From positions 1,590,182-1,654,181 of the forward strand of contig JBJLEF010000001.1 in the NCBI GenBank assembly GCA_045565995.1: a stretch of DNA of 64,000 nt, written 5' to 3'. The notes under the pieces are model-generated. The model did no database searches. It was not told the origin of the DNA and saw only the letters and a list, made by a program, of their open reading frames with translations. The DNA is from Pirellulaceae bacterium (GTDB lineage: Bacteria > Planctomycetota > Planctomycetia > Pirellulales > Pirellulaceae). A program made the translations under genes and the position numbers. Positions 3,920 through 27,405 of the stretch are shown one piece after another (position 1 is the first letter of the stretch; each line of letters starts with the position of its first letter).

Positions 3920-4106
3920 TCTTAGATTCGGTGTTTTCCTGCCAATAAATTATAAATCATAAAACACCAATTTTTGGTATTAGTTTTGTCCGTAGGTAAA
4001 ATCAACTGGTTACTGGGTCATCCCCTTTGTTAGATGGTTTGTTCAGTGATTTTGGTTTTCCTTACAGTAGAAACAGCTTGTTGAAGGCTGTATTAAAAGG
4101 CGTCAT

Positions 4107-7100
4107 TTGATGTTTAATCAAGAATCTAAACGTTCTCAAAAGAAATCGAATTCTATTTCATCGAAAAAGAGTTTTGATAGTAAGCGTAAGCTGTTCCTCG
4201 AGAACCTTGAAGATAGGCGGCTCCTGACCGTCGGTCCCCAGTTGATCGGTATTCAGCCCAACGATGGTGAGTTGTTACCGTTTAATTCGGAGCAAGCTTA
4301 CATTCGTGATACTGCACCGCGAGATTTGACATTTAGATTTGATGAAAATCAGGTGTTTAATTCGAATAATCTGGATGGAATCCAGATTACCCGATCTAAT
4401 ACTGATGGTGACTTTACCGCTGCGAGCGTCACGTCCGATTTTAATACCGGTGGTCTTGTGGAGGTGCAATTTACTGCTGCCAAACTGGGAACCGAACAAA
4501 ACGACATCCAGTTAGTATTTAGCAAGCGAGATCAGGGTGGCGCAGGCGCTCCGGAGATTGGTGTTGTTGACAACCGAGTTGAAATCAGTCTGAATACCAA
4601 CCCGGGCAATGAGTCAACGGTTTCTGACCTGCTTACGGCACTGAACCAAAACGCTGATGCATATGCTTTGATTAGAGGTTCCGTCGTTTCTGGCGCAGCG
4701 GGAACGGACGTCGCCACCCCCTCCAATAGTTACTCACCACTGGTTACCGCTGGTGCTAATGATGTAGTGATACAACCCGGCTATATCGGAGTGGCCGATT
4801 CGCCGAACGAAATCATTGTTCGCTTTTCAGAAACCTTGCCAGATGACCTGTATCAGGTTGATGTGTATGGCGAAGGTAAAAATGCGCTTCGCAATAATCT
4901 TGGGATGGCTGTCAACGATGTGACTCTTGATAGTGTTGATAACGGCCAGGACATTTCAACACAATTTGAACTCGATCTGGGCGCTCAGATTATTTCGGTC
5001 GTGCCTCAGCCGATAACGCGTGCTCTCGACGGTACGCTGACACAAAACAAAGATCAGATTCTATTGTTTTTTAACAATGATGATCTTGATCCCGCTTCCG
5101 CACAGGATTCTGACTTTTACCAGTTGATTCGGACTAGTGATACAACGGAATCAACGGACGATGCAGGCTTTGTTTTTACTCCTGACACCGCTGAATATAA
5201 CGCTGAAACAGATGCCGTTCTTCTGACATTTGCCGCTGACTTGGATCAGTTGCCTGGCAGTGGGGCATTTCGTCTGCGAGTTGGTACTTCCGAAGCCTTA
5301 CCAGGAGCTGTCACCTCACTTGTGAGCGCTGATAGCCCTACAAATGATTTTGTAACAGCACAGGGGGTTCCCGCTGCAAGTCTGGAGTCAGGAGGTGTTC
5401 TGATTTCCGGTGAAATCATCGAAGATGCGAATTTTCCTATTGATTTACCGGGTGATAGTACTGATCCGGGACACCGTGAGATCAACTTGCTCGATCAACT
5501 ACATGTCCCGAGTGATTCGGCAGATTCAGATTTAAACATCTCGACAATAAAGTACTGCTTCCAGGATGATCTGGGAATTGTTCCCGGGGATACTGGTGGG
5601 CAGCCTGCGTACAATAATATTACCGAAACGCAGAAGCAACGCACACGCGAAATTCTTGAACAGCTTTCGAACCGAACAGGTGTCCAGTTTATTGAAACTG
5701 AAGGAGAGGGATTCATTGTCGCGACGGCTGATTTAGCTGTTATTGGCATGGTATCAGGTCCGGGTGGAGTACTAGGTGTTAATGGTCCAATCGTGGTCAA
5801 TGGGGTGCCCCGCTCACTCGTTATTATGGATGATGGTGACGAATGGACTGACGAATTTAATGGTTCTTGGTATCAGACGGCGATGCATGAAATCGGACAC
5901 CAGCTTGGCTTGACCCATGCCTATGATCTTCCAGCTCATACATTATTGGGGCAAGACGGTGTTGAACAGGCTCAGTATGGCCCAGCTTTACTCGAAGAAG
6001 ACTTTCCAGGTGATCACGATGAAGTGCACCTTAATCATCTTCATCGTCCTGAAAGTCGTGATATTGATTTATATGAATTTACTCTTACTGCGAAAGGGCT
6101 CTTTACAGCGGAGACATTTGCAGAACGACTGCGTGATTTTAATGAGGGTAATCTTGTACTAAACTCGGCTTTAACTGTCTTTAGGCAAAATGCTGATGGA
6201 TCTCATACAGTCATCGCTCAGAATGACGATTACTTCAGCGATGACTCCTACGTCGAGCTTAATCTGGATCCCGGCACCTATTTCGTAGGGGTATCCTCTA
6301 CCGGTAACACTGCCTATAATCCGACCATTCCAGATTCCGGATTCTACGGAACCTCTGCGGGTATTTATCAACTTAAAATGAACTTCCGATCGGATGTTGA
6401 TGTTGCCTCTGGGAATGTAATGATTGATGCAGACAATCCGCTAGATGCAAATCGCCCTGAAATCGAACTAACAGCTTTAGATGGGGATTCAGATGGTCTT
6501 CCGGGTGGCGTGTTCAATTTTTGGTTTCGTACCGCCGGAGAAACGGACGGCACTCACTCGTCAGGTGAATCTCGCACCATCTTTGTGGATAAATCTGCGG
6601 ATGATGGTGGTAATGGAACGTTGGCTTCGCCATTTAATAATCTTCTTGATGCACTTAATGTCAGTCCAACCGGTGTTCCAAGTTCAACGTCTAATCCTGC
6701 CAGCGTTCAGGAAGGCGATATTCTGCGTATTCTTAGCAATGCTGGTTCCGATGGAGACATTCGAACAGAGTTGGATAATCTTGCTTACGAAATCGGTTTC
6801 GATGATATGGGCAATACGTTGGATGATGGCGCCGTTTTGGAAATCCCGAAAGGCGTGATCGTACAGATTGATGCTGGGGCGGTAATGAAAATGCGTCGCA
6901 GTTGGATTGGTATCGGTTCGACATCGCCCGCTGAGGATCGTGACCGTAGTGGAGGCGCCATTCAGGTTCTCGGCGCCCCTAATTTTATCGATGAACTGGG
7001 TAATCTTGTTCCTCAAACAGGTGACTACTCAGATGCGACACCGCTTCAGGATCTGAAAGGCGAAGAGAATGAAAAAGCGGTTGTTCACTTTACCTCCTAC

Positions 7101-10100
7101 AATGATGAATCGCTCGGACTCGACACCTTTACCTTCGCCACGGAAGCAGTTGCCGGGGATTGGGGGGGGATTCTGATCCATCATGGTGTGGACGGAGCAG
7201 ATCAAACACGGGTCGATTATGCTAAGAATGGTATCTTTCTAAACCACATTAATCATGCTGATATTCGCTATGGTGGTGGCCAGGTGCTGGTAGAGTCTGT
7301 GTCACAGATTATTGATCCAATTGAAATTGTCAACGCCCGCCCAACGATTTCACACAACGAAATCGCCTACAGTCGAGATGCTGCGATCGCGGCTAGTCCG
7401 GACAGTTTTAAAGAATCGAATTTTCATTCTCCTGAGTATCAGGAAGAATTTACGACGAATCCGTTCACAGTGGATTACAAACGAATTGGGCCGGATATTT
7501 ACGGTAACCGCGTCCATGACAATACAACCAATGGCCTGGCAATCCGTGTCGGGACTTTGTCGGGTGACTCGACTCAGAAGCTAACCGTACCGGGTCGACT
7601 GGATGATACAGACATCACGCACATCTTGCAGGAAAACCTGGTCATTGAAAGTACACCAGGTGGACCATTTGAAGAGACTCTTAGTCAATCGCTACAGTTA
7701 GTGACACTGAGTCCTCGTAGTTTAGGGGCAGACGGCTCGTTAGCTGCTGGTACCTACACGTACAAAATGGTTTTTGTAGATAAAAACGGCAATGAGAGTC
7801 TGGCAACCGATGCATCGCGGTCGGTCACGATCAGTGGTTCGGAAAATGGAACTGAATTAAATCAGCTCTTAACGGCAAGCGGAGATTTTGTTGCTCGTCG
7901 ACTTTATCGTCACGACGGTGGGGTAGGAGCCTATCAATTGATTGCGACGATCAATCAGACGGATACACGATATGTAGATGATGGTACGACGCTCAATGGT
8001 GATCTCGACGAAACCGCAACGAGTAAACTGCGGCCTCGATTCGACGCACGCTTGGCGATCGACCCTGCTGTCGTGCTGAAGCTTGACGGAGCGCATATCC
8101 ATACGGAAGTGGGCGCTCAGATTATTGCCGAAGGTCGGGATGGGCACGAAGTCGTTATTACTTCGATTTTAGATGATCGGTATGGTGCTGGAAGCACATT
8201 TGATACTTCTAATGATGGTGCTCCGATTCCAGGTGGTGTCAATGAACCCACTCCTGGTTCCTGGGGTGGTATCTATGCGGCTGCAGAAAGTATCTTATCC
8301 ATCGATAACGCGGTTATCGCTTATGGTGGCGGTGTCACACCGATTGAAGGTACCTTTACTGCCTTCAATACTATCGAAGTTCAACAGGCGAAAGCTCGTA
8401 TTGCCAATAGTATCTTTGAATTCAATGCGGGTGGTTTTGGAGGACAGGCTCCGGCTTCCCGTTATGGTCGCGGAGTGAATGAAGAGAGTGTCATCTTTGT
8501 ACGTAGCGCGCAGCCCGTCATCGTTGGGAATACTTTCCGAAACAATGTCGATGATGATTCGACGACTCGTATTTCCGCGATCAGCATCAATGCCAATGCG
8601 TTAAACCATGAGTTGTTGTTTGATTATGGTCGTAGTACCGGTGAGGCAGGTGCTTTGGGTGGCTATCGGGATAATCACGGTCCGCTCGTGATAGGTAACC
8701 GACTTAGTAACAACGAAATTAACGGGATGGTGATTCGTGGTGAGGTTCTTACCACACAAAGTATTTGGGATGATACCGACATTACCAATGTGTTGTTTGA
8801 CACGATTATCGTGCCAGACTTCCATACGTACGGAGGGTTGCGTCTGCAAAGTAATCCTACGCAGAGTCTGGTTGTTAAACTCGAAGGTGGTAATGCCGGC
8901 TTTGATGTTACCGGCCGTCCGCTGGAGATCGAAGACCGGATTGGTGGAGCCATCCAGATTATTGGCCAACCTAAATCGCCGGTTGTGATTACCTCACTAA
9001 AAGACGATTCTGCCGGTGCTGGGATTCAGCCAAATGGTGATCCGATGGTGGACACTAATAACGATGGCGAATATAACCCGGCGGATTATGTAGATCAGAC
9101 AACGACCAGGATTAACATCAATTTTGGGCCGACGATGCAAAATAATCTGGCCGCGATGCAAACAGTGCAACGTGCGGCTGATTTCTGGTCCACCGCTTTA
9201 GCCGATGATGTCACTGTAACGATCGATGCTGAGTTTGCTGCATTAGGAGCAGGCGTTGCTGGAACCATGTCACCGGTCATGGGGAATATGCTTTATGACC
9301 AATTACGTGATGTGATGATTTCCGATGCTCAGGAACATGAGATTATCGTCGGTCAGTTGCCGGTTTACCAAGGATTAACTACGGATGGTGCAGATGTTTC
9401 GGACACGGTATCGGTAACGAGGGCCAACTTGAAGGCACTGGGGGTTACCAATTTGCCTGTTTCCAATAGCCTTTTTGGGACCGGCGCGATTGATGGCATC
9501 ATGAATATCGCAGATACCTACGATAATGCTGCAGCTGACTTCCTGCAGGTTGCCATTCATGAAATCGGACATGCACTTGGATTTGTCTCAGGTGTTGCAA
9601 ATGTAGATGCCGGGGCGAGTGTGACGAATCTGACCACGATGGATATGTTCCGTCTGGCTCCAGGGCAGGGAATTAATAATTTCACCGATGCCCCACGTAT
9701 GCTTGATCCAACCAAGGATCATGTTTTCTTTGACGGCGGTCACTTTAACCCAAGTCGCATTTCAACGATTGCCGGTCTAACTCGCGGCGATATTCCTCTG
9801 TCAACGGGTGAAGCGACGGGTGACGGCTGGCAGGCAAGTCACTTTAAAAACCGTAACCTGATCAATGGTGTCTATCTCGGCACAATGGATCCGGTCGTGA
9901 ATCCGGCTGCGACGGAAAATGCGAGTGAAAATGACAAACGTGTTCTTGACTTAATCGGTTGGGATGTGATCTATGCCGGACCTGCATCGCCTGGGGATTG
10001 GAATACCGTCTTAATCGATCAGTACGCACACGACCGCAATGTAAGTGTGACTGTTGAAAATGAATCCCGCGATGTGAATGCTCCGGGCCCAAATGCGACA

Positions 10101-13100
10101 GCATTAAAAGCTCAATTCCTTGGTGAATTGGCACCAAATCAAAAGGCTGGTGACGATAATCGACGGCTGGGATTTGAAGTCTCAGGTTTCTTAGCGAATC
10201 CGGACGACGTGGACGTCTTCAGTTTTGAAGCGGAAGCCGGCACGGAAGTCTATATCGACATCGATAAAACCACCCATGCCCTTGATGCTGTATTGGAATT
10301 GCTCGACAGTAATGACCGTGTATTGGTCCGGTCTACCAATTCCTTAGCAGAATCCAATGAAAATGCAGCTTTGGCTGTAGATTCCTCCATGCAGGATAAA
10401 GCCCGCGTTTTGCATCAAGCCGACTCGCCATTCGCCGGGAAGGACTACTGGGCAATCAACCCGCGTGATCCTGGAATGCGAATTCAGCTTCCTGGTCCTG
10501 TTGGAACAAGAAATACTTACCACGTGCGTGTACGCAGTAATACCACTGATGGATTTATCGATGCCTTGCCGATTGGATCCAGCGGATTAACCTCAGGTGC
10601 TTATCAGATGCAAATCCGGCTTGAAGAGCTGGACGAAGTGCCGGGTTCGATGATTCAGTATGCATCGATTGGTTATGCCACTACGGGGATTACCGTCGTG
10701 GGACAGCCAGCTCACTCCTTCCTATCCGGCGAAAATACGGAAGTTGAAACCACTCACCTGCAGAATGATTCCCGTAGCACGGCTCAGTCCATTGGAAATG
10801 TCTTGCAATCCGAACGTGGTGCAATAAGCGTCGCTGGTTATATGCATCCAAACCTTACGGGGAATTCGACCGATTGGGATGAAGACTACTACCGATTTGA
10901 AGTAGCCGCCCAAGAGTTGCGAGGCAGTGAAGTTAATACCTGGCCTGTGGTCATTGACCTCGATTGGGCTGATGGCTTAGGACGGGCGAATCTGAATCTC
11001 GGAATCTACGACGAATCAGGTACTTTGATTTACTGGAGCACGGATTCAAATGTAGCGGACGATCGTCCTCGTCCAAATGTTGACAATCAGGTGGAAGACC
11101 TATCTCGCGGTTCGGTTGGAACTGGTGATCCGCTGATCGGACCGATTAGTCTTTTGCCAGGCGTGTATTATGCTGTTGTTTCGATTGAAGGCCATACTCC
11201 TGATTTTGGCTCAACGACGCAATTAGAACCGGTCAATTCACTTATTCGTATAGCTGAGGATCGTATTGAATCCACAGGTACGCAATCGCATCTCGCCAAT
11301 TCGGGTGACCCATTTGATGGTCACTGGCCCGGACAACAGGGTGGTGATGATGTGGTTCTCAGATATCCTGATGGTACCATTCGTAATGTTCGGACCTTCG
11401 AAGAAGCAGAGCAGCCTGTTTTGTGGAACGAACAGTCGGTGATTCCGTGGACACTGAGCGACGTTAGCCTGATTGTTGCCACGAATGACCGGATGGCAAT
11501 GTATGATCCGTTTACTGGTAGGGAGAGGGTTTTCTACGGGGATGATGTTCATTTTGGTGACGACAACAGAATAGGAGATATCGGGCGGCAATTCGATGGA
11601 ACGGTACATGCATTTTCATCGGCGTTCCTCCCAGTACCAGGTAATGGTTGTGCACCAAGGGATGATAATAATCGGTATCTGGAATTGAATACCGAAATTG
11701 GAAACGCGACAGTTGTTGGTGCAACCGGAATACAAACATTTGAATTAGATCCAGCCAATCCTGATGCTTACAAGCGAGCCAATAATTGTGAGAACGTAGA
11801 TATTGGATACGGTGTTGATATTGAGGCGATGTACTATGGTACGATTAGCCGCCCCCACTCGAATGATCGTTCCTCTGACGATAACTCAAATTCTCCGTCA
11901 GAGCGTCTGTTGGTGGTAGGTAACCGTAATGACCAACTGGTTCAGCAGAACGGTGTGGACTGGAAGACGAATTTGGTTTTGGAATTAGACCCAACGACTG
12001 GAGCAGTTCGTCATACAGGGACTAAAGATCCCGATTTAAATCCTAATGAACACGAAGCTTCTTTAAACGCCTGGGCTGTTGGTAGAATTTTGACAGGTCC
12101 GGAGCTTTCAACAGTGAGTTTTGGCAATCCATTTGGGGCGGCGACGACAACTAATCCGATCAATTTTTCGACGGTTTGGCAAATCACCGATGGGAGCCTC
12201 TTTGAAATTAATGATGGATTCCAGACAACTACATTCGAATTCGATTTTGGGCCAGAGGTTCTACAAGATCTGAACGCCCCGACTGATGCACCTCCACCGG
12301 ATCCATCGAAGGTGATGAAGGATGGTTACTTTTTCGTATTGGATTCAGATTCCAATACGGTTGATGATGAACAAGTCTTCCAATTTGATACGGGAAGCGT
12401 TATCACCTTCACTGAAAATGGTGATCAATTTAATGATGCAACAGTTATCACAATTAATGATGGTATTAGCGGTAAAGCATTTGAGTTTGAAGATACGACG
12501 GCAGCGACACCGGATGGGCTGTCCGATCCGAACGCACAGCAGGTTAATTTTGGTTCTGGTACAAGTGCATTTGGGCTTGCTGCTGAATTAGCGCGTCTGA
12601 TCAATGCTAATAATGATACGGTAATCGTCGCGGAGGCAGTTGGTAACCGTGTCACGCTGATAGATGACAATTCGATCCAAATTACCAACAGTGAAGACCC
12701 TGTTGTGGGTGTCCGACTCGAAGGTGGTGGTGGTGCCGCACCTATTCTGCACATCAAAGATCCATCATTGTTGGTTGATGGTAATACCTTTAGCGTGATG
12801 GAAACTGTATCGAATACGCCGATCATTTTTGAATTCAATAACCTTGCTGTTGGGGGTGGCGTGACGGCCGGTAATATTCAGGTTGATTTCAATGTGACGG
12901 ATACACGACAACAAGTAGCGCAGGCGGTGGCAGCGGCAGTAAGTGGCTCGACTGCTAATACAGGGCTTACTGCACACGTAGGAAATGACCGGGTGGCGAT
13001 TAATGGTCCAATGATTGATATTGGTACTCTAGTCGCTGCTCCAACAGCAGCTAGTCTCGCACTCCCGAGCGTCATTACGGTAGAAGAGAACTTTGATCGC

Positions 13101-16100
13101 GATCAGATAGGTACTGCGGTGCAATCAACGGTGTCGGTCTTTCCAGGGTTTGACGTTGGGTTTTATGAAGATCGTATCAACTTCCTTGGTCCCGAGGTGG
13201 GGGATTTTTCGGGAGTTGCTCCACGATGGCTTGACCTCGCAACCGAAGGTGGTACATCTGATCCTCAGCATATACGAATTGGGTTGTTAGCTCACGATCA
13301 GGGATCTGATTATGCTGATCCATTTGACCCCAATAATCCTCCCGGAACACTAGATGGTATTGCTTCGAAAATAGCAGATGCAATTAATGCCAATTACAAT
13401 CAAGATTTTCCAAATCCAAATCCAAGTCAGACTGTTTCGGCGACGGCAAATGGTGCTGAAGTTTCGGTGATTGGAGGACAGATTAGTACTCCACCAGGGT
13501 CTCCGATATCCGCAGACGGGGCGGGGCCAGGCGGTACTATTCGTGGTTTGACAGCCATCAAGACGGCCACTGGTCGTACGGAGCAATTGTTTGCCGTGAG
13601 TGACGAGGGAGGGCTTTACGAAGTTACAGTCGACCTTCGTGATAACAACCGCCTTAACGTTGAAACGGAATTTGTTGTGTCGTCGACGGCTGATCTAAAT
13701 GGGATCAATTTCACCGGTCTGACTGTCGGTCCACAGAATGTTGAAGATGGAAGATATGCAGATTTGCTTTTTGGTATCGACGAAGAGGGAAGTGTTTTTG
13801 CGTTTGATACCTCAGGTGAACTCCAACCAGTCTTTGGTGATGGTGCTCCTGTACTAGAGCTTTTCGGCTCAATGATGAATCCTACAGTGACACAAACACT
13901 AAGGCCGATTGTTGATGCCAGTGGGATTGTTGATGACGACACATTTAGCGTTCATGGTGAAATTTTCCAATTAGAGAAATCTGGAGTTGATCCGGAGAAT
14001 GGAAATGTCTGGGTTGATATTAGTGGATTTTTTGGTTTTCCACTCGACCCCGTAGGCATTGGGATTGCAATTGCTACTGCAATCAATAACCACCCCTTCC
14101 CCGCAGGTATAGATGTTGGTGCGACAGTTGATTTTAATGGTGATGTCATAATATTTGGCGATGGGTTAGGTGCAGGTGCTGTGGATGCAAGCAGTACTGC
14201 CGGTATCCTGCATCTTTTACCAGATTTGGTGGCCGAGTTTCCGCCGGTCGGTTTGGTCTTTAGTAATCTGGACACTAACCTATTCTGGAACCAGCATTCT
14301 GCAGACGATTCGTCTACTCAGCAAAATGAAACTGACAGATATTCCACTCAAGTTCGTGCTTACTGCGAAGCAGATGATTCGTGGGATAATGTGCACACAA
14401 CAACGGTTATATGCCCAGATCCTGGGGGACCTCTGCAGCTTGAGATTGATAAGAGGCAGCATGATCAGGGGCACGGTATTCCTCCTTCACCGGACGGTAC
14501 TCGGATTGACTACGTCGCGGGGCATTCGAGTCTCCACTTTGGACGTGGGAATGTAGATGGAGATCCTAGATCCTATGATTACATTGGCGGGGCCTATGGA
14601 TCCATGGTTAGTAATGAGTTCTCATTAGCGGGCCGATCGGCAGCAGATAAGCCGATGCTATACTTCAATTATTTCAAGGATAGTGATGCGGCTAGCGTTT
14701 CAATTTCAGACAACGGTGGCGGTTGGGTCACAGTCGCCGGTTTAGGTAATACGGGAGGCGTGTGGGATCAGCAGCGAGTGGATTTAAGTTCTTTTGCCGG
14801 TGCTGAGCATCTTCGACTTAAAGTTGATTTTACCACCGGTAAACGCCAGTCAGGAGATGAGTTACGCGCGATTGAAGGGCAATATATTCGAGATGGGGAA
14901 ACGTTCGTAATTGATAATCAGACCTTTGAGTTTGAAACGGGAATTTCGTTTGTATTTCCATCCGGCGGAACGATGGTTGAAAACTCAACTATTGAGTTGA
15001 CCGACGAAAATGATATCACAACAGTCTTTGAATTTGTTCTGGATATTGCCAATGTTACCACCGGTGATCAGCCTGTCCTCGTGAGTTCAAGTGACAGTGC
15101 CTCCGAAATCGCAACTCGATTCTCTAATGCTTTGCAACTGGAGGGATATGTAACTCATGTTAATAACGAGCGAGTCAATATCCCTGTTAATCGATTAGGT
15201 ACGGGACCGACATTCGTAGTTACAGATGTTAATACTGGACCAATGCTAGAAGGACAGTTGGGACTGAATGTGGATGGTAATACTGGTTTGCCTATTAATG
15301 TCAATGCGGTCCCCGTCTATGTCCACGAAGGGATGGATAGGATTCAAGTTGCTAATGAGCTTGATGTTTCATTGGAAACCGCCTTCTATGCTCCAGTAAT
15401 CGTCACGGAATCAGGTAATGAATTCAGTGATGGGGAAACGTTTACACTTTCCGATGGGGTAGTTGATCCAGCTACCAACTTGGCTTCGCGTCGGGTGTAT
15501 GAGTTTGATACTGGAGTCTTGATAGCTATCCCTGTCGCTGGAGGAGCAAGTGTTGCCGATGGGGAAACAATCACATTTACAAATAGTGCCACTGGCGATG
15601 ATTTGACGTTTGAATTCGAAGATATTGATGTCGCCGATGGTATTGCTGCGGGAAATATCGAAATCGATTATCAGGCTAGTGATTTAATGATATCGTTAGC
15701 GCAGAAGTTCGTTGATGTGGTTAATGCGAACGGCGCACTCATGGGATTGAATGCTCAGGTGATCGATGGCAATCGAGTTCAAATTCATTCGACTCTGGAT
15801 ACTGTTACAGCCACCTCTGGCACATTTGGAATTGATGCTAATAGCACCCCAGGAGTAGGGTTGGATATTGAAATTCAAGCTAGTGGTACGGATATTACAG
15901 ATCAGGATACGTTGACCTTAACGGTACCGGGATTCCCAACAGATACGGCGGTCATTTTTGAATTCAATGACCTTGCTGTTGGTGGTGGCGTGACGTCCCC
16001 AAATATTCAGGTTGATTTCGATGTGACGGATACGCCGGCTGAAATTGCTACAGCCCTTGGTGACGCCATGGTTGGGTTGTTCGCTGGAGTCAACGTAACG

Positions 16101-19100
16101 GAACATTTCGTAGGTCTGGATAATAATGCTGGCGTCTTTGGCGCTACTGCTGTTGGCGGAATTACCATTCGAGACCGCGAAACTATTCGAGTGATTCCAG
16201 GATCGATGATGACGGCGGCAGAGGTTGCGAATGTCGTCGCCGATGGGATTAACCTGACAACTAACCAGAATATTCAGGCCGGGATCGGAGATGCGCAGCG
16301 GATGGTTGTTCTGCAGCACACATCCTTGTTGTCGTCATTCATAGCCTTTAGTGAGAATGCTGGTCAGGCAGTAAAACTCCAATTAGAAACAATCAATGAT
16401 GTGGTCGGCAATGATAGTGTCAAACAACATGGCGATCTACTTCGCATTATCGGGCATGCTGTCGCGGATGCGGGTCCCCTCGGTTTGTTTAATAACGCAT
16501 CTGACTTTGGTGTTGCTAAGCTCCAGAATAACGACCATGAAGGCTTCTACATCGATGACTTTGTCATAGGTTACGCGGAACGCGGTGAAATGATAACGGC
16601 ATTTGATGGAGATGATAACTACGATGGAGATCCCATTGGAGCTTCCCTTGGTGCTTATCAACTGGAGATTCGTCGAGCTTCGGAATATGTCAGTGGAAAC
16701 TTATTTCAACAGACATTTGATACTAATGATCGTCATACATCAGCCTTCCGCATCATAGCTCAGGATGGGGCGGATATAGCGGACGGTGATATCTTCACCC
16801 TGACTGACGGGATGCGTCAGGTTAACTTTGAATTCAGTGATGAAGATAACAGTAACGGAGTAACGCCGGGCAATTTTGAGGTTCCATTCAATTCGGAGCA
16901 ATTAGCCTGGGAAGTTGCTATTTCTATTCGTGATACGATTAATCGCTCTGAAGTACGAGCAGTTTTGGACGTCACGGCCGCTCTAAGTGATGGAACTGAT
17001 GGCACTCGTTTCCCAGATGACGGAGATGGTGACGATCGTGATGACTTAAGAATCGATATTGATCTGTTCGATTTCCCAAATATTCTTTCTTCTAATTTAG
17101 TAGATCTTCACGGAGATGCTTACATTCTTGGTGATGTCAGTTTACGCACTTTTAATCCAGTTTTTCAGCCGGCGGCCGAGCCTAACGATATTCTGTCCCA
17201 GGCAGTGGATACTGGAATCAACGGTCCTCAATCTGCGACATTTGAAGCCACCGGGGCTATTGGAGACAATCAGGATTTGAGTGCGCAACTTGGTAGAGAT
17301 GCTGACCTCTTTCGAATTCAGCTCAATACTGGTGATGAAGTTGATATTCGAGTGGATGCAGCAGCGGGCTCGCTCTTGGATCCCGTTCTTAGCTTCTATG
17401 ATGCCGTCGGTAGTGAATTGGTTGGTGCGCGAGTGGACGCATCGGCAAACGGAGTTGCCGAAATAACTACATTTACTGCTCCGATCGGCGGAACGTTTTA
17501 CATCGGAGTCTCAGGATTCCCAACGGGTGAAAGTAAACCACTCGGTGCTGGCGTAACTTTAATTGATACAGACGATGGTGCCGATACTCCAGTATCCAAT
17601 AATACAGGCTTTTATAGTATCCAAATTTCGACTGGTGCCTTATCTATTGAGGACAGTGCTGCGGTCTTCCAGTTTGTCGAATTCCCAAATGGTATTCTTA
17701 ATACGGGGAGTCAAGTTCGTGGAGATTCTAACCTTCCACGTGAGCAAGGGCAAATCCTGCTGCAAGGAAACCGCATCACTAATTCCCAAACTTACGGTAT
17801 TCATATCGAGGGTGGTAATCGGGTTGCACTAGACGGTAATGCGCCTCATCAGGGTGCTGTTCGACATTTAGATGAACTGAATAATGAAGGACTGGTTCCT
17901 GGTGTGACAGTTATAAATAATCTAATTACTTATAGTGGATCAGGTGGTATTCGATTTAGTGGTGATACCAATGGAGCAGGACTGCCGACTGCTCCAGTTC
18001 CGTTCGGCCGAATAGTCAATAATACAATCGTCGGCATTGGCGGTACGATCATGACTGAGTTTGACGGAAATGATATCGGTATTCAGGTTGACCAAAATGC
18101 TAGCCCAACCTTGTTAAACAATATTATTGCCAATACTGCCCAAGGTATTAATGTTGATCCATCGTCGAATACAACTGTTGTTGGTGGGACGCTTTATCAA
18201 GGGAATCTGTCAAATACTAACTACAGTGGTGAAGATTTCGCTATTTCATTGACTGATATGGACCCGCTTTTTGTTGATCCACGATTCGGTGTGAACAACT
18301 TTTATTTAGATCCTGGTACGCCAGAGAATCCAAACCGCGCGATCGATAGTTCCGTTAGTTCACTGGCCGAACGATTTGAGTTCAATTTAGTGAAAGAGCC
18401 TATCGGATTGGCGCCTTCACCGATTATTGCACCAGTACGCGACGTGACCGGTCAGCTGCGTGTGGATGATCCCTCAGTTGAACCACCAAACGGGCTAGGG
18501 ACTAACGTTTTTATTGATCGTGGTGCAATTGATAGAGCTGATTTTTCGGGTCCAACAGCCGCTCTGATTAACCCGAGGGATAATGATGCAGATGGAGTGG
18601 ATGAGAATTCCGGTCATACGGTTGTTAATCTGGGTGCGAATGCAGTCGTTTCAAGCTTTGAAATCCGACTCAATGACGGTCTAGAGCCCGCGGATCCGAA
18701 TGAAGGAGTTGGTATAGCCGACAACACGGTTACAACCGAAACGGTAGTCTTACGCCAAAATGGTGAACTCCTGTACGACGGCATCGATTACTCATTCAGC
18801 TATAACGAAACAAGTGATACTGTACGCCTAACACCATTGTCAGGAATCTGGACGCCGGATCGTATTTACACAATTGAGTTAGCCAATACCGACCACTGGA
18901 AACTTGTTTCCGAATCGGGTGTTAATATTAATGACGGTGATATATTCAAGATCCTCGATCTCGACGGTAATGAAGCAGATTTCGAGTTTGAACGAGGCTA
19001 TTCGTTGTCCGTTCCACAGACTCTGGAATTACAGATTCCTGAAGAGGCTGGTGGACTTGGTGGCATTGTTGACGGTGAAGTCTTTTCACTGCGAATCGGT

Positions 19101-22100
19101 ACCAATGCTCCTGTAGTTTTTGAGTTTGATCGCGATGCTGATGTAACTGCCGGACGTACTCCGATCCTCTACACCGTGAATAGTACGCTCGATGAAATTG
19201 CGGATGGAATTGTTGCAGCTGTTTCTAATGCCGGAGTTGGAGCAAATCCGGTTAACCTTGGCGACGGTAGAATTCACGTTGGCTCAAATGTTCTTCACAC
19301 CCTCGATACCAGCCTTACCAGCTTGACCCAAACGGGTATTGCCGGGGGTGTCGCTGATGGTGATTACTTTACCATCGATGATGGTAGTAAAATCATCACG
19401 TTCGAATTTGAAAATACCGAAGTTGGCGACGGGCCGCTTGTGGCTGATCCGATCGCGGGTGATGTTGTAATTCAATTTACTACCGAGAAAACTCATATCG
19501 AACTTGCTCAGCTTATTTCCGACTCGATCAATGCAGAAGATCTTAATTTAGATACCGCGACACTGACAGGTGGTATTGTTCATATTGGCGGCACCATGAG
19601 CCACCTATTAAACTCAGCAAATAGTAATCTGTTGCAGCAAGGTGCTCCCGGAGTTCGACCTGAATTCGGAATTCGGATTCCTACCACAGCTGGACAGATT
19701 GCCGGCCTAGATGATGGTGAGACATTTGTCGTGCAGTATGGCTCAAGTGCACCAGTCACCTTTGAATTGAATAATCTCGATGTGGATCCTAGTGTGACGC
19801 TTGGTAACACTAGGATTGACTACAATAATTCAACAACAGTAAATCAGTTGGCGCAGGAAATCGTCATTGCTCTAAAGGGTTCTGGATTGAATTTGGATCC
19901 AGAGATTGTGCCGGGTACCTCCCTGATATCCTTCGGGGCTCGTCCGCAGCACTCACTGGATGTTTCGAATACAGCATTGATCAAAGTAGGGGATCCGAGT
20001 AAAGCTGCGGCGATACCGGTTAATATCCTGCCGCTGGATTCGTTTGATGGAGCTCAAACAGCCGTTCAGATTATCAAAGCAATTCGCTCTGATCAGTCTC
20101 AGGAACAACTCGATGGTATTATTGCTATGCCAACTGGTGCGAATCAGCTGATGGTCACTGGTGCGTTGAATGTCTCAACATTCAGCGATGCATTCCTACC
20201 CGATGATTGGTCTGTTCAGACTCCGCGTGAAATCAAAGAGATAGAAGATTTGGCTACCAATCCACTCAAACCCAATCAGCTTTCCGGCGAAACGATGTAT
20301 ACCATTCAATTGGGAACAGTGGATTACGATATGGGTGATGCTCCTGACGGAAATGGTGTGGCGCCCCAGAATGCCTATCCCACGGTCAGTGGCCACAATC
20401 CAGCGATTCACGTGTCTGGTTCCACCATCTTTCTGGGCGAAAGGGTAGATCCCGATAATGATGGTCAGCCGATTATCGAAGATGATCACGACGGCGATGG
20501 TTATCAAATTGACACTTCGACCGCCGTTGGTATTACGACAGATAGTCCCACAAGCGAAACCCCGACTAATCTGGTCATTTCGAGCGTTGATGTTCTGACC
20601 GTCACGGTCGATGGAAATGGAATTGTCGATGACGACATCCTGGTTGTCGGAAATACGAATTTCCAGCTCGAAACATCCGGTCTTGACCCGGGCAATGGAA
20701 ATGTCTTTGTAGATATTATTCCCGGTACGGACAGCATTAATAATATTGCCGATAAGATTGCGACGGCAATTAATGGCGAAGCAATTGCTGGTGTCAATGC
20801 CACTGCCGTTGGTGCTGATGTTCAAATTACGTCGACTGAGGGCACAGTGGTTGATGCCGATGCGGCTACTGGGATTGATGCAGCAGCACAGCGAGCACAT
20901 GCGGTAGATGGTGAAACCTTTACTATTACGGGTAATGGCAACGACTATACCGTTGAACTTGATAGTGATGGCACCATCATTAATGGAAATATTCAGGCTA
21001 GCTTCGGTGTCGTTGACAGTGCAGATGATCTTGCCGCAACAATCACACAAGCGTTGATCAATGCCAATATTCCTCTAAATCTTAATCCAATTGCCCGAAC
21101 GAATGGTCGCATTGAAATTACCGGCGATGATGCTGATGGCGTGAGCGGTCCTGGTGGCACAGCTATTGGCTTCTTTAACCCGTATGTCTTCACGGAATTA
21201 GTTGTCACGGCATCGCAGGATAGCTTGCTTGATGCCTGGGTTGACTATAACCGTGACGGTGACTGGGATGATCCAAATGAGCAGGTAGCAGCCGCAATGC
21301 AGTTGACTGCGGGTGAAAATGAATTGAGTGTTAAAGCTCCACTGGAGCCAGATTCAGTCCCAGGCCAGACGTTCGCTCGATTCCGAATTAGTGATGTTGG
21401 TGGTTTGCGACCAACTGGCCTCACAACTAACGGCGAAATCGAAGATTACCAAATTGAGATTGTGGATGGCCGACCACCTGAAGCGATCAATGACCCATCC
21501 GTAGCGACTGCTGGATTCGCAACTACGGAAGATGTTGTATTGCCGGTTGGCGCCGTTGATCCAAGTGTGCTCGATAACGATACAGATGCCAATAACAACG
21601 ACATTCGGGTAGATGAGTTCGATGTATTGAGTGCGAGGGGTGCGATCGTGACGGTCGACCAGAACTGGAAGAGTGCCGGAGCATCAAGTGGAACTTTCCA
21701 GTACGATCCGACTGCAGCAGTAGATATTCAGGAGTTACACGACGGTGAAGTTGTTGCCGATACATTCACCTACACCCTGATCGAAGATACGACAACTCCA
21801 AATAGCTTCGGGTTTAAGTCTCAGACTGCAGCCACGGTAACCATCACGTTGACAGGTGTGAACGACGCGCCGATTTCACAAGACATTCCACTGTCGGCCT
21901 TCGAAGATGGAATTGCGGTTACCGCCGACTTTGATGGTGATGACGTCGATAATGATGATGATTTTGATTCACTGACCTTCTCCATTGTAGATACTTTGTC
22001 AGCCGGCGAGGGTACTGTTGCTAATAACGGTGACGGAACATTTACTTTTGTACCAGGCAGCGACTTCCAGGAACTTGCTCAGGACCAAGAGTTTGACGTT

Positions 22101-24476: not shown

Positions 24477-25094
24477 GTGAGAATGAACGACGATACCAAT
24501 AGTACTCTATTAGTGCGTGCTAAGGGCGGTGATCGGGATGCCTTAGGTAATCTGCTCAATAGATACCGCCCATATCTGCGGATTCTTGCTCTCAGATATT
24601 TGGACTCAGGCGTGCGGCAGCGCGTCGATCCCTCGGATGTGATTCAGCAGACTTGTTTGGATATTCATCGCGATATCGACGGTTTTCGTGGCGACCATGA
24701 GGCGGAATGGATTGGTTGGGTTCGACGTATTCTCGAAAATAATGTCAACCAGGTGATTCGGCGACACATACAGGCACAGAAACGTTCTGTGCGCAAAGAA
24801 GCGGTTGTCGATAAATCATCAGGTACTCACCGAGTCTATAATGCCGGTCCTGTATCGAAGGAGTCTTCTCCGAGTCATCGAGTGATGAAAGGAGAACGTG
24901 CTGTTCGATTGGCAATCATGCTGGGAAAACTGCCGGAAGTTCAACGAGAAGCCATACGTTTGCGTTATTTGGAGGGCAGAACCCTTCAGCAAATTGCAGA
25001 GAGTATTGGAAGATCGGAGATGGCAGTCGCAGGCCTTTTAAAGCGAGGCCTTCGCAGTCTGCGCGATTTGAGTGGGACAGAGAGTAGTTTTTAA
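24477..25094 (+). CDS. ECF-type RNA polymerase sigma factor (sigma-70 regions 2 and 4)
   Basis: Region 2 reads 'LLNRYRPYLRILALRYL...DVIQQTCLDI'. Region 4 HTH reads 'LPEVQREAIRLRYLEGRTLQQIAESIGRSEMAVAGLLKRGLRSLR'. The 205-aa size fits. Confidence 0.85.
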   Translation: MRMNDDTNSTLLVRAKGGDRDALGNLLNRYRPYLRILALRYLDSGVRQRVDPSDVIQQTCLDIHRDIDGFRGDHEAEWIGWVRRILENNVNQVIRRHIQAQKRSVRKEAVVDKSSGTHRVYNAGPVSKESSPSHRVMKGERAVRLAIMLGKLPEVQREAIRLRYLEGRTLQQIAESIGRSEMAVAGLLKRGLRSLRDLSGTESSF

Positions 25095-25134
25095 TCACCT
25101 TGGTCATGTCACTTCACTGCCGTGACGATACAGA

Positions 25135-27405
25135 ATGACTATGTCTGAACATCTTGTTGAAAATCCTGAATTCGAGGACGAGCCTTCTGAACGGGAAATC
25201 CGCATCAGTAGGTTGCTAGCGGATTTTTTAAAGCAGGAAGATGAAGGAACGGCGGCTAGTCGTGAGCGATTTCTGAAAGAGAATGAAGACGTCGCTGAGG
25301 ATCTTCAAATCCTACTTGAGATGGCCGATATGATTCAGGAAATGGCAGGACCAGTTTCCGGTGATGAACTGGTCTTAGATTCCATTGGACCATCGCCAGA
25401 TCAAGGTGTCTCTAAGCCTCCTTCCCCCGTGCTTGAGGGAAACCATGGACTGGAAGGTCGTCCTGGTCATGGTGAGGATACACCAACCAACCAGGGCGAT
25501 AGCGTTGATTTCTCTTTGCCGGGTGAGTCGATACCTCCGGTCGGAAGGGACTCAAGTATGCCCGAAGGATTTACCTTCGGCGACTACCAATTGTTGGAAG
25601 TGATTGGTCAGGGAGGGATGGGAATTGTCTATCGCGCTCATCAGGCAGGTATTAATCGTGAAGTAGCGGTCAAAATGATCCGTTCAGATCGTTTCCGTTT
25701 TGATAAGGACTTAGCTCGTTTCTACAAAGAAGCACAAACTGCGGGATCAACGCAACACCCGAATATTGTGACCGTATTTGACATCGGTGATGTAAATGGT
25801 CGACATTATTTCTCGATGCAATTGATCGAAGGTGCCGATCTGGCAGCACTAAACCGCGAAAATAAACTTAGTAGTCGGCGCATCGCAGAGATTTTGAAGG
25901 ATGTTGCGAATGGTATTGAAGCAGCACATAAACACGACATCCTCCATCGTGACTTAAAGCCGGCAAATGTATTGGTGCGCGAGTCGGATGGTCAGGCGTT
26001 TGTTACGGACTTTGGTTTAGCCAAACAGGTCGAAAATGAACTGGAACTGACGCAAAGTGGTGATACCGTTGGAACGCCAAGCTATATGGCGCCGGAACAA
26101 GCCAGAGCCGATGAATCTCGTATGGGGCCGGCTTCGGATGTTTACTCGATCGGTGCCATTCTTTACGAGTTGTTGACAGGAGTTCCACCATTTAAGTCGG
26201 ATTCAATGGCTAGTACTGTTGTGGAAGTATTGCATCGTGAAGTGATACCTCCGTCGCACTTGAATGCCAAGGTGAATAAATATCTGGAGGCCATTTGTCT
26301 GAAGTGCCTCGAAAAGAATCCACAATCACGTTACGAATCTGCCAAAGAACTAGCCTCAGACTTCCAGCGTGTGCTTGACGGTCGACCTGTAAAAGCCGTT
26401 ACTGTGGGGAAATCAAGAAAGGCCATTCGCTGGGTTTGTAATGTTCCCTTCTTTGCTCGTCTATCAGGTAATCACTTCCCCAACGTGAGGCCTGCTCATC
26501 GCGTAGTTAATCATTTACTGTGGATCATTCCCGTCTTGCTTTTAGGTTGGTTCGTCTTGTGGCAAAACGTTCGAGAGAGCTATGTCCCGGATTCGATTCG
26601 TATCGGTACGGGGATGAAGGATCAGTTCTATCACCAGGTTGGACTGGAATTGCAAAACGAATTGGTTACGCATTACGATCAGCCCGCCGATATCCAGACG
26701 ACCACCGGTTCCTTAGAGAATGTTAACTTACTGAATTCCGGTGCTATCCATATCGCCATTGCGCAGCTCGAAGTGCTTGCCAATGACAATTCGATCGCTA
26801 AACTCACCCCACTCTATGCTGATAAAGTCCATGTGGTGGTTCGAAAGGGTCTGGGAATCGAAACATTAAGCGATCTCGAACACCGGGTTATTTCTTTGGG
26901 ACCTCCCAACTCGGGGATGAGAATTACGTCGGAGCGAGTCTTGGCGACACTGAATATCGATTACAACAGCATGCAACAAACCTCCAAACCGTTCCAGGAT
27001 ATGCTGACCGATTCGAGTATTGAAGCTGGTATCGTTACAACACGTACAGAGAATCAGGTGCTTCGGCATTTGCTTAATGATACCCGGTTCAAACTGATCG
27101 GTCTTACGATTCCTCAAATCAATGCATTAACTCAAATTGGGTATCATCGAGATCGGATTTCAGGTGAGGGTCTCAGTCAGGTCGAAGCGGAATTAACTTC
27201 CACGGTTGCAACAATGGCATTTTTGGTAAGTAATGCAGATGCCGGAGAGGCCTTAGTGGATCGAATGCTTAATGCCCTGTTTGAAGAACGGGACAACGGT
27301 AGTATTGCAACTCGCTTAAACCTGCTTTCGAGAACGGCAGCGAGTCAGCATCCTATTGATTTTCATCCAGCAGCATTGAGATTCTTTGAAGAATCCGAGG
27401 AATAA
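25135..27405 (+). CDS. Ser/Thr protein kinase (Hanks-type) with acidic N-terminal domain, one TM segment and C-terminal periplasmic-binding-protein-like (TAXI/PhnD-like) sensor domain
   Basis: Kinase motifs are 'IGQGGMGIVYRAHQ', 'VAVKMI', 'HRDLKPANVLV', 'DFGLAK' and 'GTPSYMAPE'. A TM segment 'LLWIIPVLLLGWFVLW' follows. The C-terminal 'NLLNSGAIHIAIAQLEVLANDN...VHVVVRKG' resembles PBP-type solute receptors. The gene directly follows the ECF sigma with a 40-nt gap. Confidence 0.85.
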   Translation: MTMSEHLVENPEFEDEPSEREIRISRLLADFLKQEDEGTAASRERFLKENEDVAEDLQILLEMADMIQEMAGPVSGDELVLDSIGPSPDQGVSKPPSPVLEGNHGLEGRPGHGEDTPTNQGDSVDFSLPGESIPPVGRDSSMPEGFTFGDYQLLEVIGQGGMGIVYRAHQAGINREVAVKMIRSDRFRFDKDLARFYKEAQTAGSTQHPNIVTVFDIGDVNGRHYFSMQLIEGADLAALNRENKLSSRRIAEILKDVANGIEAAHKHDILHRDLKPANVLVRESDGQAFVTDFGLAKQVENELELTQSGDTVGTPSYMAPEQARADESRMGPASDVYSIGAILYELLTGVPPFKSDSMASTVVEVLHREVIPPSHLNAKVNKYLEAICLKCLEKNPQSRYESAKELASDFQRVLDGRPVKAVTVGKSRKAIRWVCNVPFFARLSGNHFPNVRPAHRVVNHLLWIIPVLLLGWFVLWQNVRESYVPDSIRIGTGMKDQFYHQVGLELQNELVTHYDQPADIQTTTGSLENVNLLNSGAIHIAIAQLEVLANDNSIAKLTPLYADKVHVVVRKGLGIETLSDLEHRVISLGPPNSGMRITSERVLATLNIDYNSMQQTSKPFQDMLTDSSIEAGIVTTRTENQVLRHLLNDTRFKLIGLTIPQINALTQIGYHRDRISGEGLSQVEAELTSTVATMAFLVSNADAGEALVDRMLNALFEERDNGSIATRLNLLSRTAASQHPIDFHPAALRFFEESEE

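Follow-up and report, generated by a model that had tools for sequence, protein, structure and literature searches.

What is the module that recurs through a giant protein of this marine planctomycete: a genuine domain or a by-product of composition, a known family or a new one, and what could it do? In the 64,000-nt stretch of DNA analysed here (the window), all copies lie within a single plus-strand ORF (4107..24305; 6,732 aa according to the ORF list and its translation), for which the ATG at 4110 is the probable true start. A profile search found no modules in other frames or ORFs of the window. The nearest genomes are two MAGs, one assigned to Rhodopirellula sp. and the other to an uncultured Pirellulaceae, and in orthologous stretches of two Pirellulaceae MAGs the frame is kept open over ~1,020 codons at 81–83% identity. 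Beyond the modules, Pfam and NCBIfam assign to the protein two zincins, PPC, β-helix, GEVED, cadherin-like/Big_9 and dockerin domains. PPC and Beta_helix are the sole matches between nt 12009 and 18608, and matches to Cadherin_4/5, Big_9, VCBS and tandem-95 are confined to the C-terminal part, after nt ~21,500. The succession of module region and GEVED domain is also found in homologous giant proteins. From this setting (PF07595, dockerin, cadherin/Big_9, PPC and zincins), we infer that the host protein is probably extracellular, either secreted or at the surface. A sulfatase with an F5/8 type C domain is encoded nearby, within the window.

Profile HMMs run on the giant protein detected 12 full modules and four half-modules that consist of the hairpin alone, all within nt 12177–21122 (Table 1). 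The sequence-only reading had noticed more than 12 recurrences, and its nine quoted peptides were all found in the ORF where it had placed them. The seed HMM, built from seven copies of the giant protein and iterated, recovered five unseeded full copies (33.7, 10.2, 5.7, 5.4 and 11.3 bits, the last after one iteration) as well as half copies limited to the N-terminal part. Once iterated, it scored each of the 12 full copies at 47–86 bits, against a maximum of 2.8–4.6 bits for shuffled proteins (n=100, 100-aa blocks, local D/G/F composition preserved). A family-wide HMM seeded mostly with copies from other proteins re-found 12/12 modules at 15–95 bits. A fifth hairpin candidate (12315-12422) did not score significantly, and a possible helix-only remnant, scored with an IN-half HMM that excluded the window's protein, was marginal. 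Modules are acidic and virtually cysteine-free. Although the protein is acidic and Gly- and Thr-rich and its copies are mutually just 10–45% identical, the notion that the repeat is a composition effect in a D/G/F/T-rich protein instead of a homologous domain is refuted by the shuffle control and the recovery of unseeded copies, by an unbiased database scan in which the same profile matches 1,794 proteins and by an AF2 model that folds the unit at pLDDT 91.7.

Table 1. Modules, half-modules and flanking domains of the giant protein, with window coordinates
Feature	Position (nt)	Strand	Evidence
Planctomycete extracellular motif, N-terminal (LENLEDRRLL)	4182..4238	+	PF07595, 23.6 bits, slightly below the cut-off of 25.5
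Zincin metalloprotease domain 1 (M10-like, HEIGHQLGLTH)	5754..5927	+	PF00413, E 6.6e-10
Zincin metalloprotease domain 2	9150..9965	+	NF038122, E 4.4e-55
Half-module 1, hairpin only (DGSLFEINDG..TTFEFDFG)	12177..12266	+	Hairpin HMM 26.6 bits; shuffle maximum 3.0
Full module 1 (aa 2774-2860)	12426..12686	+	48.8-51.9 bits, unseeded
Full module 2 (aa 2887-2973), first AF2 model	12765..13025	+	82-95 bits
Possible helix-only remnant (TLDGIASKIADAINA), marginal	13347..13391	+	5.6 bits; shuffle maximum 4.9
Full module 3 (aa 3272-3351), FQLE replaces FEF	13920..14159	+	48-50 bits after iteration, unseeded
Half-module 2, hairpin only (DGETFVIDNQTFEFETGISFVFPSGG)	14877..14972	+	Hairpin HMM 28.6 bits
Full module 4 (aa 3621-3696)	14967..15194	+	10.2 bits in the first pass (unseeded), 57.6 after iteration
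Half-module 3, hairpin only (DGETFTLSDG...YEFDTGVLIAIPVAGG)	15411..15545	+	Hairpin HMM 30.0 bits
Full module 5 (aa 3814-3894)	15546..15788	+	84-100 bits
Full module 6 (aa 3928-4009)	15888..16133	+	33.7 bits, E 1.4e-12, unseeded
Full module 7 (aa 4222-4299)	16770..17003	+	78-88 bits
Half-module 4, hairpin only (DGDIFKILDLDGNEADFEFERGYSLSVPQTLELQIPEEAGG)	18915..19055	+	Hairpin HMM 33.9 bits
Full module 8 (aa 4985-5059), high-confidence AF2 model	19059..19283	+	Profile HMM; nt 19047-19319 modelled
Full module 9 (aa 5080-5161)	19344..19589	+	72-88 bits
Full module 10 (aa 5199-5277)	19701..19937	+	80-97 bits
Full module 11 (aa 5504-5575), with FQLE as in its paralogue, module 3	20616..20831	+	5.4 bits in the first pass (unseeded), 46-48 after iteration
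Full module 12 (aa 5597-5672)	20895..21122	+	69-85 bits
GEVED domain, right behind the module region	21231..21455	+	PF20009, E 3.4e-11
Dockerin type I domain, C-terminal	23874..24062	+	PF00404, E 2.4e-10

The range of identities among the 12 modules (10–45%, mean 23.5% at the protein level) applies outside a patch shared by modules 2 and 6. These two had been taken for near-identical long copies; in protein they are identical at 26/41 positions, and the shared patch is 91 nt long with 90% DNA identity (12814-12904 versus 15943-16033). Modules 3 and 11 share 76% DNA identity over 59 nt.

The repeating unit proved longer than the ~55 aa initially proposed. It measures ~90 aa (~80–95 aa), with conserved strands ('G.G.V.LG') that continue beyond the helix, and it opens with a DGxTF/FEF β-hairpin, followed by a GN strand, by an amphipathic helix with A-I-N at its end and by more strands. 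An AF2 model of module 8 with 81 family members (pLDDT 91.7, pTM 0.83) predicts the order b1-b2-b3-helix-b4-b5-b6. The independent model of module 2, computed with 12 sequences (pLDDT 74.6), gives beta-beta-beta-helix-beta-beta; the two agree through the helix, after which the 12-sequence model is one strand shorter. Of the two alternatives envisaged earlier, a new β-sandwich or a β-α family, the β-α family is supported and the sandwich is not. The module comprises two units, which are separable since the hairpin is also found stand-alone. Unit 1 is the hairpin 'DGxTFxIxDG...(V/T)FEFD', for which no known relative was recognisable and which in its solo form is followed by 'SGYSLxVPxxAGG'; 340 stand-alone hairpins and 690 within full modules were counted in 160 proteins. 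Unit 2 is a strand-helix-strand element ('GN.pIpF..sDT..qIA.aI..AIN....Lgl.p..lG.GrV.LG'). The family consensus is 77–92% conserved at D20, G21, F24, F35, E36, F37, A62 and A68, and its columns 68–70 read A (80%), I (68%) and N (38%). Judging by strand alternation, the Glu of FEF (92% conserved) probably points away from the core.

The acidic loop after this strand (FEF-D-x-[DN]-G) could be read as a putative calcium site, making the modules Ca2+-dependent rigidifying repeats of the cadherin or RTX kind. The consensus 'FEFDSDGTV' is indeed similar to a DxDxDG-type loop, and acidic modules in a marine organism, adjoined by a Ca-binding dockerin and cadherin-like domains, would suit such a role. 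However, just 188 of the 729 family copies (26%) have E.D.[DN]G behind the FEF strand, the loop varies from 3 to 30 residues, a good fit in the window is limited to module 12 (VELDSDGTIINGN) and the modules have no EF-hand or RTX matches. We therefore regard calcium-dependent stiffening as highly unlikely.

The module is far from restricted to this locus. Against 1.84 billion proteins, the 12-copy profile (HMMER) retrieved 1,794 representatives with E≤1e-3, of which 189 reach E≤1e-30. Family proteins are mostly giant (1,000–8,000 aa) with 5–23 copies apiece; 1,079 copies were counted in 159 of them, with a tandem period of 90–140 aa, and a dockerin-like motif terminates 58 of 161. All hosts bearing a name belong to Pirellulales, Pirellulaceae or Planctomycetota, and these proteins are called after their other domains only. 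For none of the 12 copies in the window did Pfam or NCBIfam give a significant match, and both were equally silent on the module region of three homologues with 15–18 copies. In particular, cadherin, VCBS, BIg, FG-GAP and RTX families, already doubted as relatives on inspection, had no match in the module region, single-module scans included. The module is thus best read as a new domain family without a Pfam or NCBIfam model that is common among the giant multidomain proteins of the Pirellulales.

The earlier impression that no known family is related stood as far as significant Pfam or NCBIfam matches are concerned, but not for the C-terminal half of the module, which appears to be related, very distantly and below threshold, to the Flagellin hook IN motif (PF07196) and to the flagellin, FliD and phage tail sheath outer domains. 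PF07196 was the only Pfam family to recur among the 81 members (6/81, best E 5.5e-5); the family consensus scored 15.7 bits and the one matching member whose score was read 21.8 bits, so that an existing Pfam family was reached only below its gathering threshold of 22.7 bits. The top PDB sequence matches of the profile were FliD 6iwy (E 0.0048), FliC 4nx9 (0.024) and the tail sheath 9hz7 (0.025), and 4/81 members matched PHROG 165 (tail sheath). The distant relationship is drawn from the convergence, among four lines of evidence, of the PF07196, PDB-sequence and PHROG 165 matches. Foldseek retrieved nothing from the PDB at E<1 (best E 1.1), and hhalign against an H. pylori FliD fragment with genuine PF07196 gave a probability of 5%. 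A 91% hhalign probability against A3 was discounted as circular, because A3 had been assembled from fragments chosen by the same profile.

One might still consider the module an ordinary PF07196 member missed by HMMER, and hence nothing new. This would accord with PF07196 being the only recurring Pfam match, with FliD and FliC being the top matches by sequence and structure, and with the helix-terminal A-I-N, which fits the Ile-Asn hallmark of the family; the excerpt of PMC9751261 consulted describes the IN motif as a central Ile-Asn pair in ~55 aa. Read by eye, I-N or V-N stands at the motif place in five of the 12 window modules (LINAN, AINNH, VVNAN, SINAE and AINGE), only nearby in modules 7 (DTINRS) and 12 (ALINAN), and is absent in the rest. 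Nevertheless, all matches lie under the gathering score, none of the 12 window copies matches PF07196 even at E≤10, and the 55 positions of PF07196 align to module residues ~22–81 only. PF07196 offers no counterpart to the conserved DGxTF/FEF hairpin, the module's strongest signature and one that also occurs stand-alone, and the protein context is non-flagellar. Plain membership in PF07196 is consequently unlikely.

In its predicted fold, the module appears similar to outer domains of flagellin and FliD and to those of phage tail sheaths. With PF07196, P. aeruginosa FliC D2 (4nx9) and H. pylori FliD D2-D3 (6iwy) it appears to share the succession of a strand, an amphipathic helix that closes with (A)-I-N and a further strand, and the flagellin and FliD outer domains are likewise surface-exposed, variable and often repeated units. 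Unlike PF07196, the module carries the additional conserved N-terminal hairpin, and unlike flagellin and FliD it belongs to giant proteins of planctomycetes that are not flagellar, where as many as 27 copies form an array; Pfam and NCBIfam scans found no Flagellin_N/C or FliD_N/C in the host protein. The tail sheath outer (protruding) domains compared (PDB 9c39_H, 8kee_A, 9cb9_A and 9khy_a; 9–17% sequence identity to the module) are also a solvent-exposed decoration of a bigger assembly, but as single insertions in a polymerising protein and not as arrays, and nothing resembling a sheath core was seen in the giant protein.

On these grounds, we propose, with a probability of roughly 0.6, that the module is an autonomously folding extracellular α/β domain of ~90 residues, combining a novel hairpin with a distant Flagellin_IN-like unit, and that it probably serves as a spacer or adhesive bead. 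The role itself is suggested by analogy and by the domain context. As stable, acidic, cysteine-free beads, the modules would set the protein's functional domains (the two zincin peptidases, PPC domains, β-helix and cadherin-like repeats) apart and hold them outwards, and the C-terminal dockerin would presumptively anchor the protein. Their flagellar and phage relatives suggest, by analogy, that they may adhere weakly to surfaces or glycans as well. Cadherin_4/5, Big_9, VCBS and tandem-95 of the same polypeptide are comparable in being extracellular repeats of ~90–100 aa with a presumed spacer or adhesion role, but they have all-β Ig or cadherin folds, whereas the module is mixed α/β.

A competing reading makes binding primary: the modules would be lectin-like or carbohydrate-binding and hold enzymes on algal polysaccharide or on the surface of another cell. 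The structural relatives do include surface-exposed domains involved in binding. PMC9751261 reports alginate binding by the Sphingomonas A1 flagellin p5, whose β-domain has the IN motif, although the excerpt does not assign the binding to this domain. The nearby sulfatase with its F5/8 type C domain would also fit, as would the polar T23, T25, T34 and E36 that recur on one strand face. Conversely, no CBM or lectin family was matched by the giant protein, its modules or the family members, the conserved positions are mostly core hydrophobic and turn residues, and 12–27 divergent copies per protein suit structural repeats more than specific binding sites. By analogy, a primarily carbohydrate-binding role is conceivable, though we consider it doubtful.

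The spacer and bead reading leaves the conserved FEF Glu unexplained, and its 92% conservation hints at a specific function. As a long shot, the composite module may be specific to Planctomycetota, a stand-alone DG/FEF hairpin unit fused to a captured decoration domain of flagellar or phage type. Through β-strand complementation, arrays of full and hairpin-only units might lock together as a rigid shaft, and shafts of this kind could be the protein basis of surface fibres of Pirellulales that bear peptidases away from the cell, 'planctosome'-like (PMC6461901), with the almost invariant FEF Glu as an inter-unit contact or ligand residue.

The 'giant genes' for which planctomycetes are known encode products that for the most part lack annotation (PMC5177795). 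The module family alone reveals no new mechanism. The modules make up ~1,100–1,400 residues of the giant protein and, at ~90 aa per copy, cover comparable stretches in many further giant proteins, with 1,079 copies counted among the top 159. A curated HMM would fill long annotation blanks in many Pirellulales proteins, supply defined domain boundaries for structural and binding work, and document a likely evolutionary link between the surface-decoration domains of flagella and phages and the non-flagellar giant surface proteins.

The repeat lies inside one very long plus-strand ORF (window 4107..24305; 6,732 aa). All peptides quoted in the sequence-only reading, which had described a ~55-aa module, were found where it placed them. 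An HMM built from seven aligned copies from this giant protein retrieved, in its first pass, a non-seed copy at aa 3927-4012 (33.7 bits, E = 1.4e-12) and further non-seed copies at aa 3620-3698 (10.2 bits), 2773-2862 (5.7), 5503-5577 (5.4) and 2691-2720 (4.5), and one further iteration recovered the copy at aa 3272-3351. As a control, the protein was shuffled 100 times within 100-residue blocks, which kept local composition; the maximum score was 2.8 bits in the first round and 4.6 bits over any round. At convergence, 12 full modules scored 47-86 bits, and four N-terminal half copies, detected with a dedicated hairpin HMM, reached 26.6-33.9 bits (shuffle maximum 3.0). The recovery of unseen copies and the low shuffle scores confirm a genuine module repeat. 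Its unit is longer than ~55 aa, as conserved strands continue past the helix ('L.l.p..lG.G.V.LG', then 'h.vD.s...L...G.PG'). Six-frame translation revealed no module elsewhere in the window. A fifth hairpin candidate (aa 2737-2772) scored only 1.4 bits with the hairpin HMM and was not retained; the orthologous fragment P0005 conserves it. Extra copies limited to the IN part (aa 4033-4060 and 5313-5327) did not score above shuffles, and a candidate helix-only remnant, TLDGIASKIADAINA (aa 3081-3095), was marginal (5.6 bits vs a shuffle maximum of 4.9).

Word-indexed homologue searches with three alignments gave no family depth, their sole yield being 5, 4 and 2 short metagenome fragments; the profile of the 12 copies was therefore searched exhaustively with HMMER against 1.84 billion representative proteins. 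Of the 1,794 proteins matched at E<=1e-3, 642 reached E<=1e-10 and 189 reached E<=1e-30; most measured 1,000-8,000 aa and contained 5-23 matched stretches. The best 159 proteins contain 1,079 module copies (729 full length), in tandem arrays with a start-to-start spacing of 90-140 aa. All named matches belong to Pirellulales, Pirellulaceae or Planctomycetota MAGs, and the proteins are named after other domains ('GEVED domain-containing', 'tandem-95 repeat protein', 'DVUA0089 family') or as 'hypothetical'. Three homologues with 15-18 copies share the GEVED, cadherin/Big_9 and dockerin tail of the giant protein, and their module arrays had no Pfam match. The family consensus, AGGxGIADGETFTITDGTNTVTFEFDSDGTVTPGNVPIPFTPTDTADEIADAIVAAINSAxxGLGLTPTNLGDGRVHLGGGHTVDVSGSSLTLSGVPG, and its conserved positions agree with the consensus first proposed from the sequence.

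The module is made of two units that can be separated. Its hairpin, 'DGxTFxIxDG..FEFD', also stands alone, followed by 'SGYSLxVPxxAGG' in place of the strand-helix-strand part; across 160 proteins we counted 340 stand-alone hairpins vs 690 within full modules, and 164 of the 340 have a full module within the following 40 residues. All four stand-alone hairpins of the giant protein lie upstream of a full module. This DG/FEF hairpin is the most conserved part of the module and has no known counterpart. AlphaFold2 modelled module 2 with a pLDDT of 74.6 (residues 1-60 near 90) when the alignment held the 12 window copies only, and module 8 with a pLDDT of 91.7 and a pTM of 0.83 when it held 81 diverse family members. 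The predicted structure is an alpha/beta domain, in line with the beta-alpha repeat family that the sequence-only reading had offered as one option and against the beta-sandwich that it had offered as the other.

Features of the giant protein, of the module 8 model and of the family consensus
Feature	Position	Support
Planctomycete extracellular motif 'LENLEDRRLL'	N-terminal	PF07595, 23.6 bits
Zincin metalloprotease domain, M10/matrixin-like, HEIGHQLGLTH	window 5754-5927	PF00413-like
Zincin metalloprotease domain 2, HEIGHALGF	window 9150-9965	NF038122, E 4.4e-55
PPC domains and right-handed beta-helix		Pfam
GEVED domain		Pfam
Six cadherin-like/Big_9/VCBS repeats		Pfam, NCBIfam
Type I dockerin	C-terminal end	Pfam
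b1, DGxxF strand	residues 12-17	module 8 model
b2, FEF strand	residues 23-28	module 8 model
b3	residues 38-41	module 8 model
Helix	residues 48-62	module 8 model
b4	residues 69-72	module 8 model
b5	residues 75-77	module 8 model
b6	residues 84-87	module 8 model
Conserved Asp	D20	84% in family
Conserved Gly	G21	84% in family
Conserved Phe	F24	77% in family
Conserved Phe	F35	92% in family
Conserved Glu	E36	92% in family
Conserved Phe	F37	81% in family
Conserved Ala	A62	82% in family
Conserved Ala	A68	80% in family

The module region of the giant protein had no Pfam or NCBIfam match, and the 12 window copies scanned singly gave no meaningful Pfam match even at E<=10, which bears out the remark that the module does not match cadherin, VCBS, BIg, FG-GAP or Hemolysin-type Ca repeats. 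Against PDB sequences, the 12-copy profile found nothing better than E = 0.38. When the 81 family members were scanned singly, Flagellin_IN (PF07196) was the sole Pfam family matched more than once (6/81; best E = 5.5e-5), each of the 43 other families listed being matched once. The alignment to PF07196 spans module residues ~22-81, with scores of 15.7 bits for the family consensus and 21.8 for one member read, both short of the gathering score, 22.7. The proposed newness of the family therefore stands in part: the existing Pfam repeat family gives a distant signal below its gathering score and, judged from sequence, the module is not a PF07196 member by that family's own criterion. With the 81-sequence profile, the top PDB match was Helicobacter pylori FliD (6iwy, E = 0.0048), followed by Pseudomonas aeruginosa flagellin (4nx9, E = 0.024) and a tail sheath protein (9hz7, E = 0.025), all aligned to the strand-helix-strand part. 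An identical list came from the first model, which was of lower confidence. Among PHROGs, weak matches to the tail sheath family phrog_165 recurred in 4/81 members. A commoner weak match, in 9/81 modules (proteins P0006-P0155), was to phrog_18828, a phage family whose function is not annotated and which may be another phage protein with the same decoration domain.

According to one article (PMC9751261), the IN motif spans ~53-55 residues, has an Ile-Asn pair at its centre and belongs to the central domains, variable in sequence, of flagellins and hook-associated proteins; the article also likens the flagellin p5 beta-domain to the finger domain of phage T4 gp11. In the module, by comparison, the helix ends in A-I-N (80%, 68% and 38% in the family). 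Foldseek found no match in the PDB (best E = 1.1), and hhalign against one genuine PF07196-bearing FliD fragment gave a probability of only 5%. A 91% hhalign probability against an alignment of FliC, FliD and sheath fragments was discarded as circular, these fragments having been picked by the module's own profile. Escherichia coli K-12 FliD and FliC, in which an independent Flagellin_IN profile was sought, contain no PF07196. The C-terminal two-thirds of the module probably belong to the same broad superfamily as the outer domains of flagellin, FliD and sheath proteins. The module is a new family or variant inside a known fold group, the decoration domains of flagellin, FliD and sheath.

Compared in pairs, the 12 modules are 10-45% identical (mean 23.5%), and DNA-level repetition is nearly absent apart from a 91-nt patch shared by modules 2 and 6 (12814-12904 vs 15943-16033). 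This pair had been called near-identical, which is true of the patch, with 90% identical DNA, but not of the protein, where only 26/41 residues are identical; outside the patch, protein identity is ~40%. The patch looks like the product of recent local intragenic gene conversion. Modules 3 and 11 share a weaker patch (76% identity over 59 nt; 13964-14022 and 20660-20718). Between the arrays, stretches at window 14200-14880 and 16130-16760 (aa ~3365-3590 and ~4010-4220) resemble the ends of jelly-roll domains, e.g. 'LYFNYF...SVSISDNGGGW...VDLSSFAG..LRLKVDF' and 'GFYIDDFVIGYAERGE', and had no Pfam match at E<=0.01. The second stretch and the start of module 7 are conserved in the metagenome fragment P0002.

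A single-protein query for related loci returned two orthologous loci only. Two MAGs, one of a Rhodopirellula sp. and one of an uncultured Pirellulaceae, are the closest genomes, with 85-86% identity over 351 aa; their orthologous stretches are open for ~1,020 codons at 81-83% identity, and the giant gene is therefore real and conserved. Because its two zincin domains differ in kind and each is followed by PPC/DVUA0089-type domains, the giant protein is probably a surface-displayed multi-protease rather than an adhesin alone. Its neighbours are typical of planctomycetes: a sulfatase with an F5/8 type C domain, DUF7133 with cytochrome c, an ECF sigma factor and Ser/Thr kinases. Immediately 3' of the giant gene and on the same strand, window 24477-27405 (+) encodes the ECF-type sigma factor and, after it, a fusion of a Ser/Thr kinase with an NMT1-like periplasmic binding domain; both may be regulators of the giant gene. 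Further along, a 1,767-aa protein (33321-38624, +) carries DUF3686 ('ATPase involved in DNA repair', E = 2.4e-186) together with DUF7902 and an AAA domain; 5' of it lie a YqiJ/NfeD-like membrane protein and an ORF of 739 aa for which Pfam gave no match. The sulfatase fused to the F5/8 type C (discoidin) domain (40900-42789, +) adjoins a PhoD-like phosphatase and a PhyH dioxygenase, the expected gene content of a polysaccharide-degrading marine planctomycete.

The modules are acidic and almost cysteine-free, and the numerous copies diverge strongly; the residues they keep in common are mainly hydrophobic ones of the core and those in turns. The host protein shows secretion, surface and dockerin features. 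The modules would be autonomously folding extracellular beads, setting the catalytic and binding domains apart and extending them outward in a giant protein, secreted or at the surface, that ends in a dockerin. By analogy with their flagellar and phage relatives, in which such domains are surface-exposed, they may add weak adhesion. Such a spacer does not account for the near-invariant Glu of FEF, which, by strand alternation, should be directed away from the core. A calcium loop (FEF-D-x-[DN]-G) is a weakened alternative, as this motif is present in only 26% of copies. The proposed role as bead and spacer fits the dockerin-based peptidase assemblies ('planctosome') proposed in planctomycetes (PMC6461901) and agrees with the general picture in which giant genes code mainly for surface proteins (PMC5177795). 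The module does not represent a new kind of biology. It occurs in giant planctomycetal surface proteins, where unknown repeats are expected, and is a genuine, widespread and presently unmodelled domain family that merits a curated HMM.
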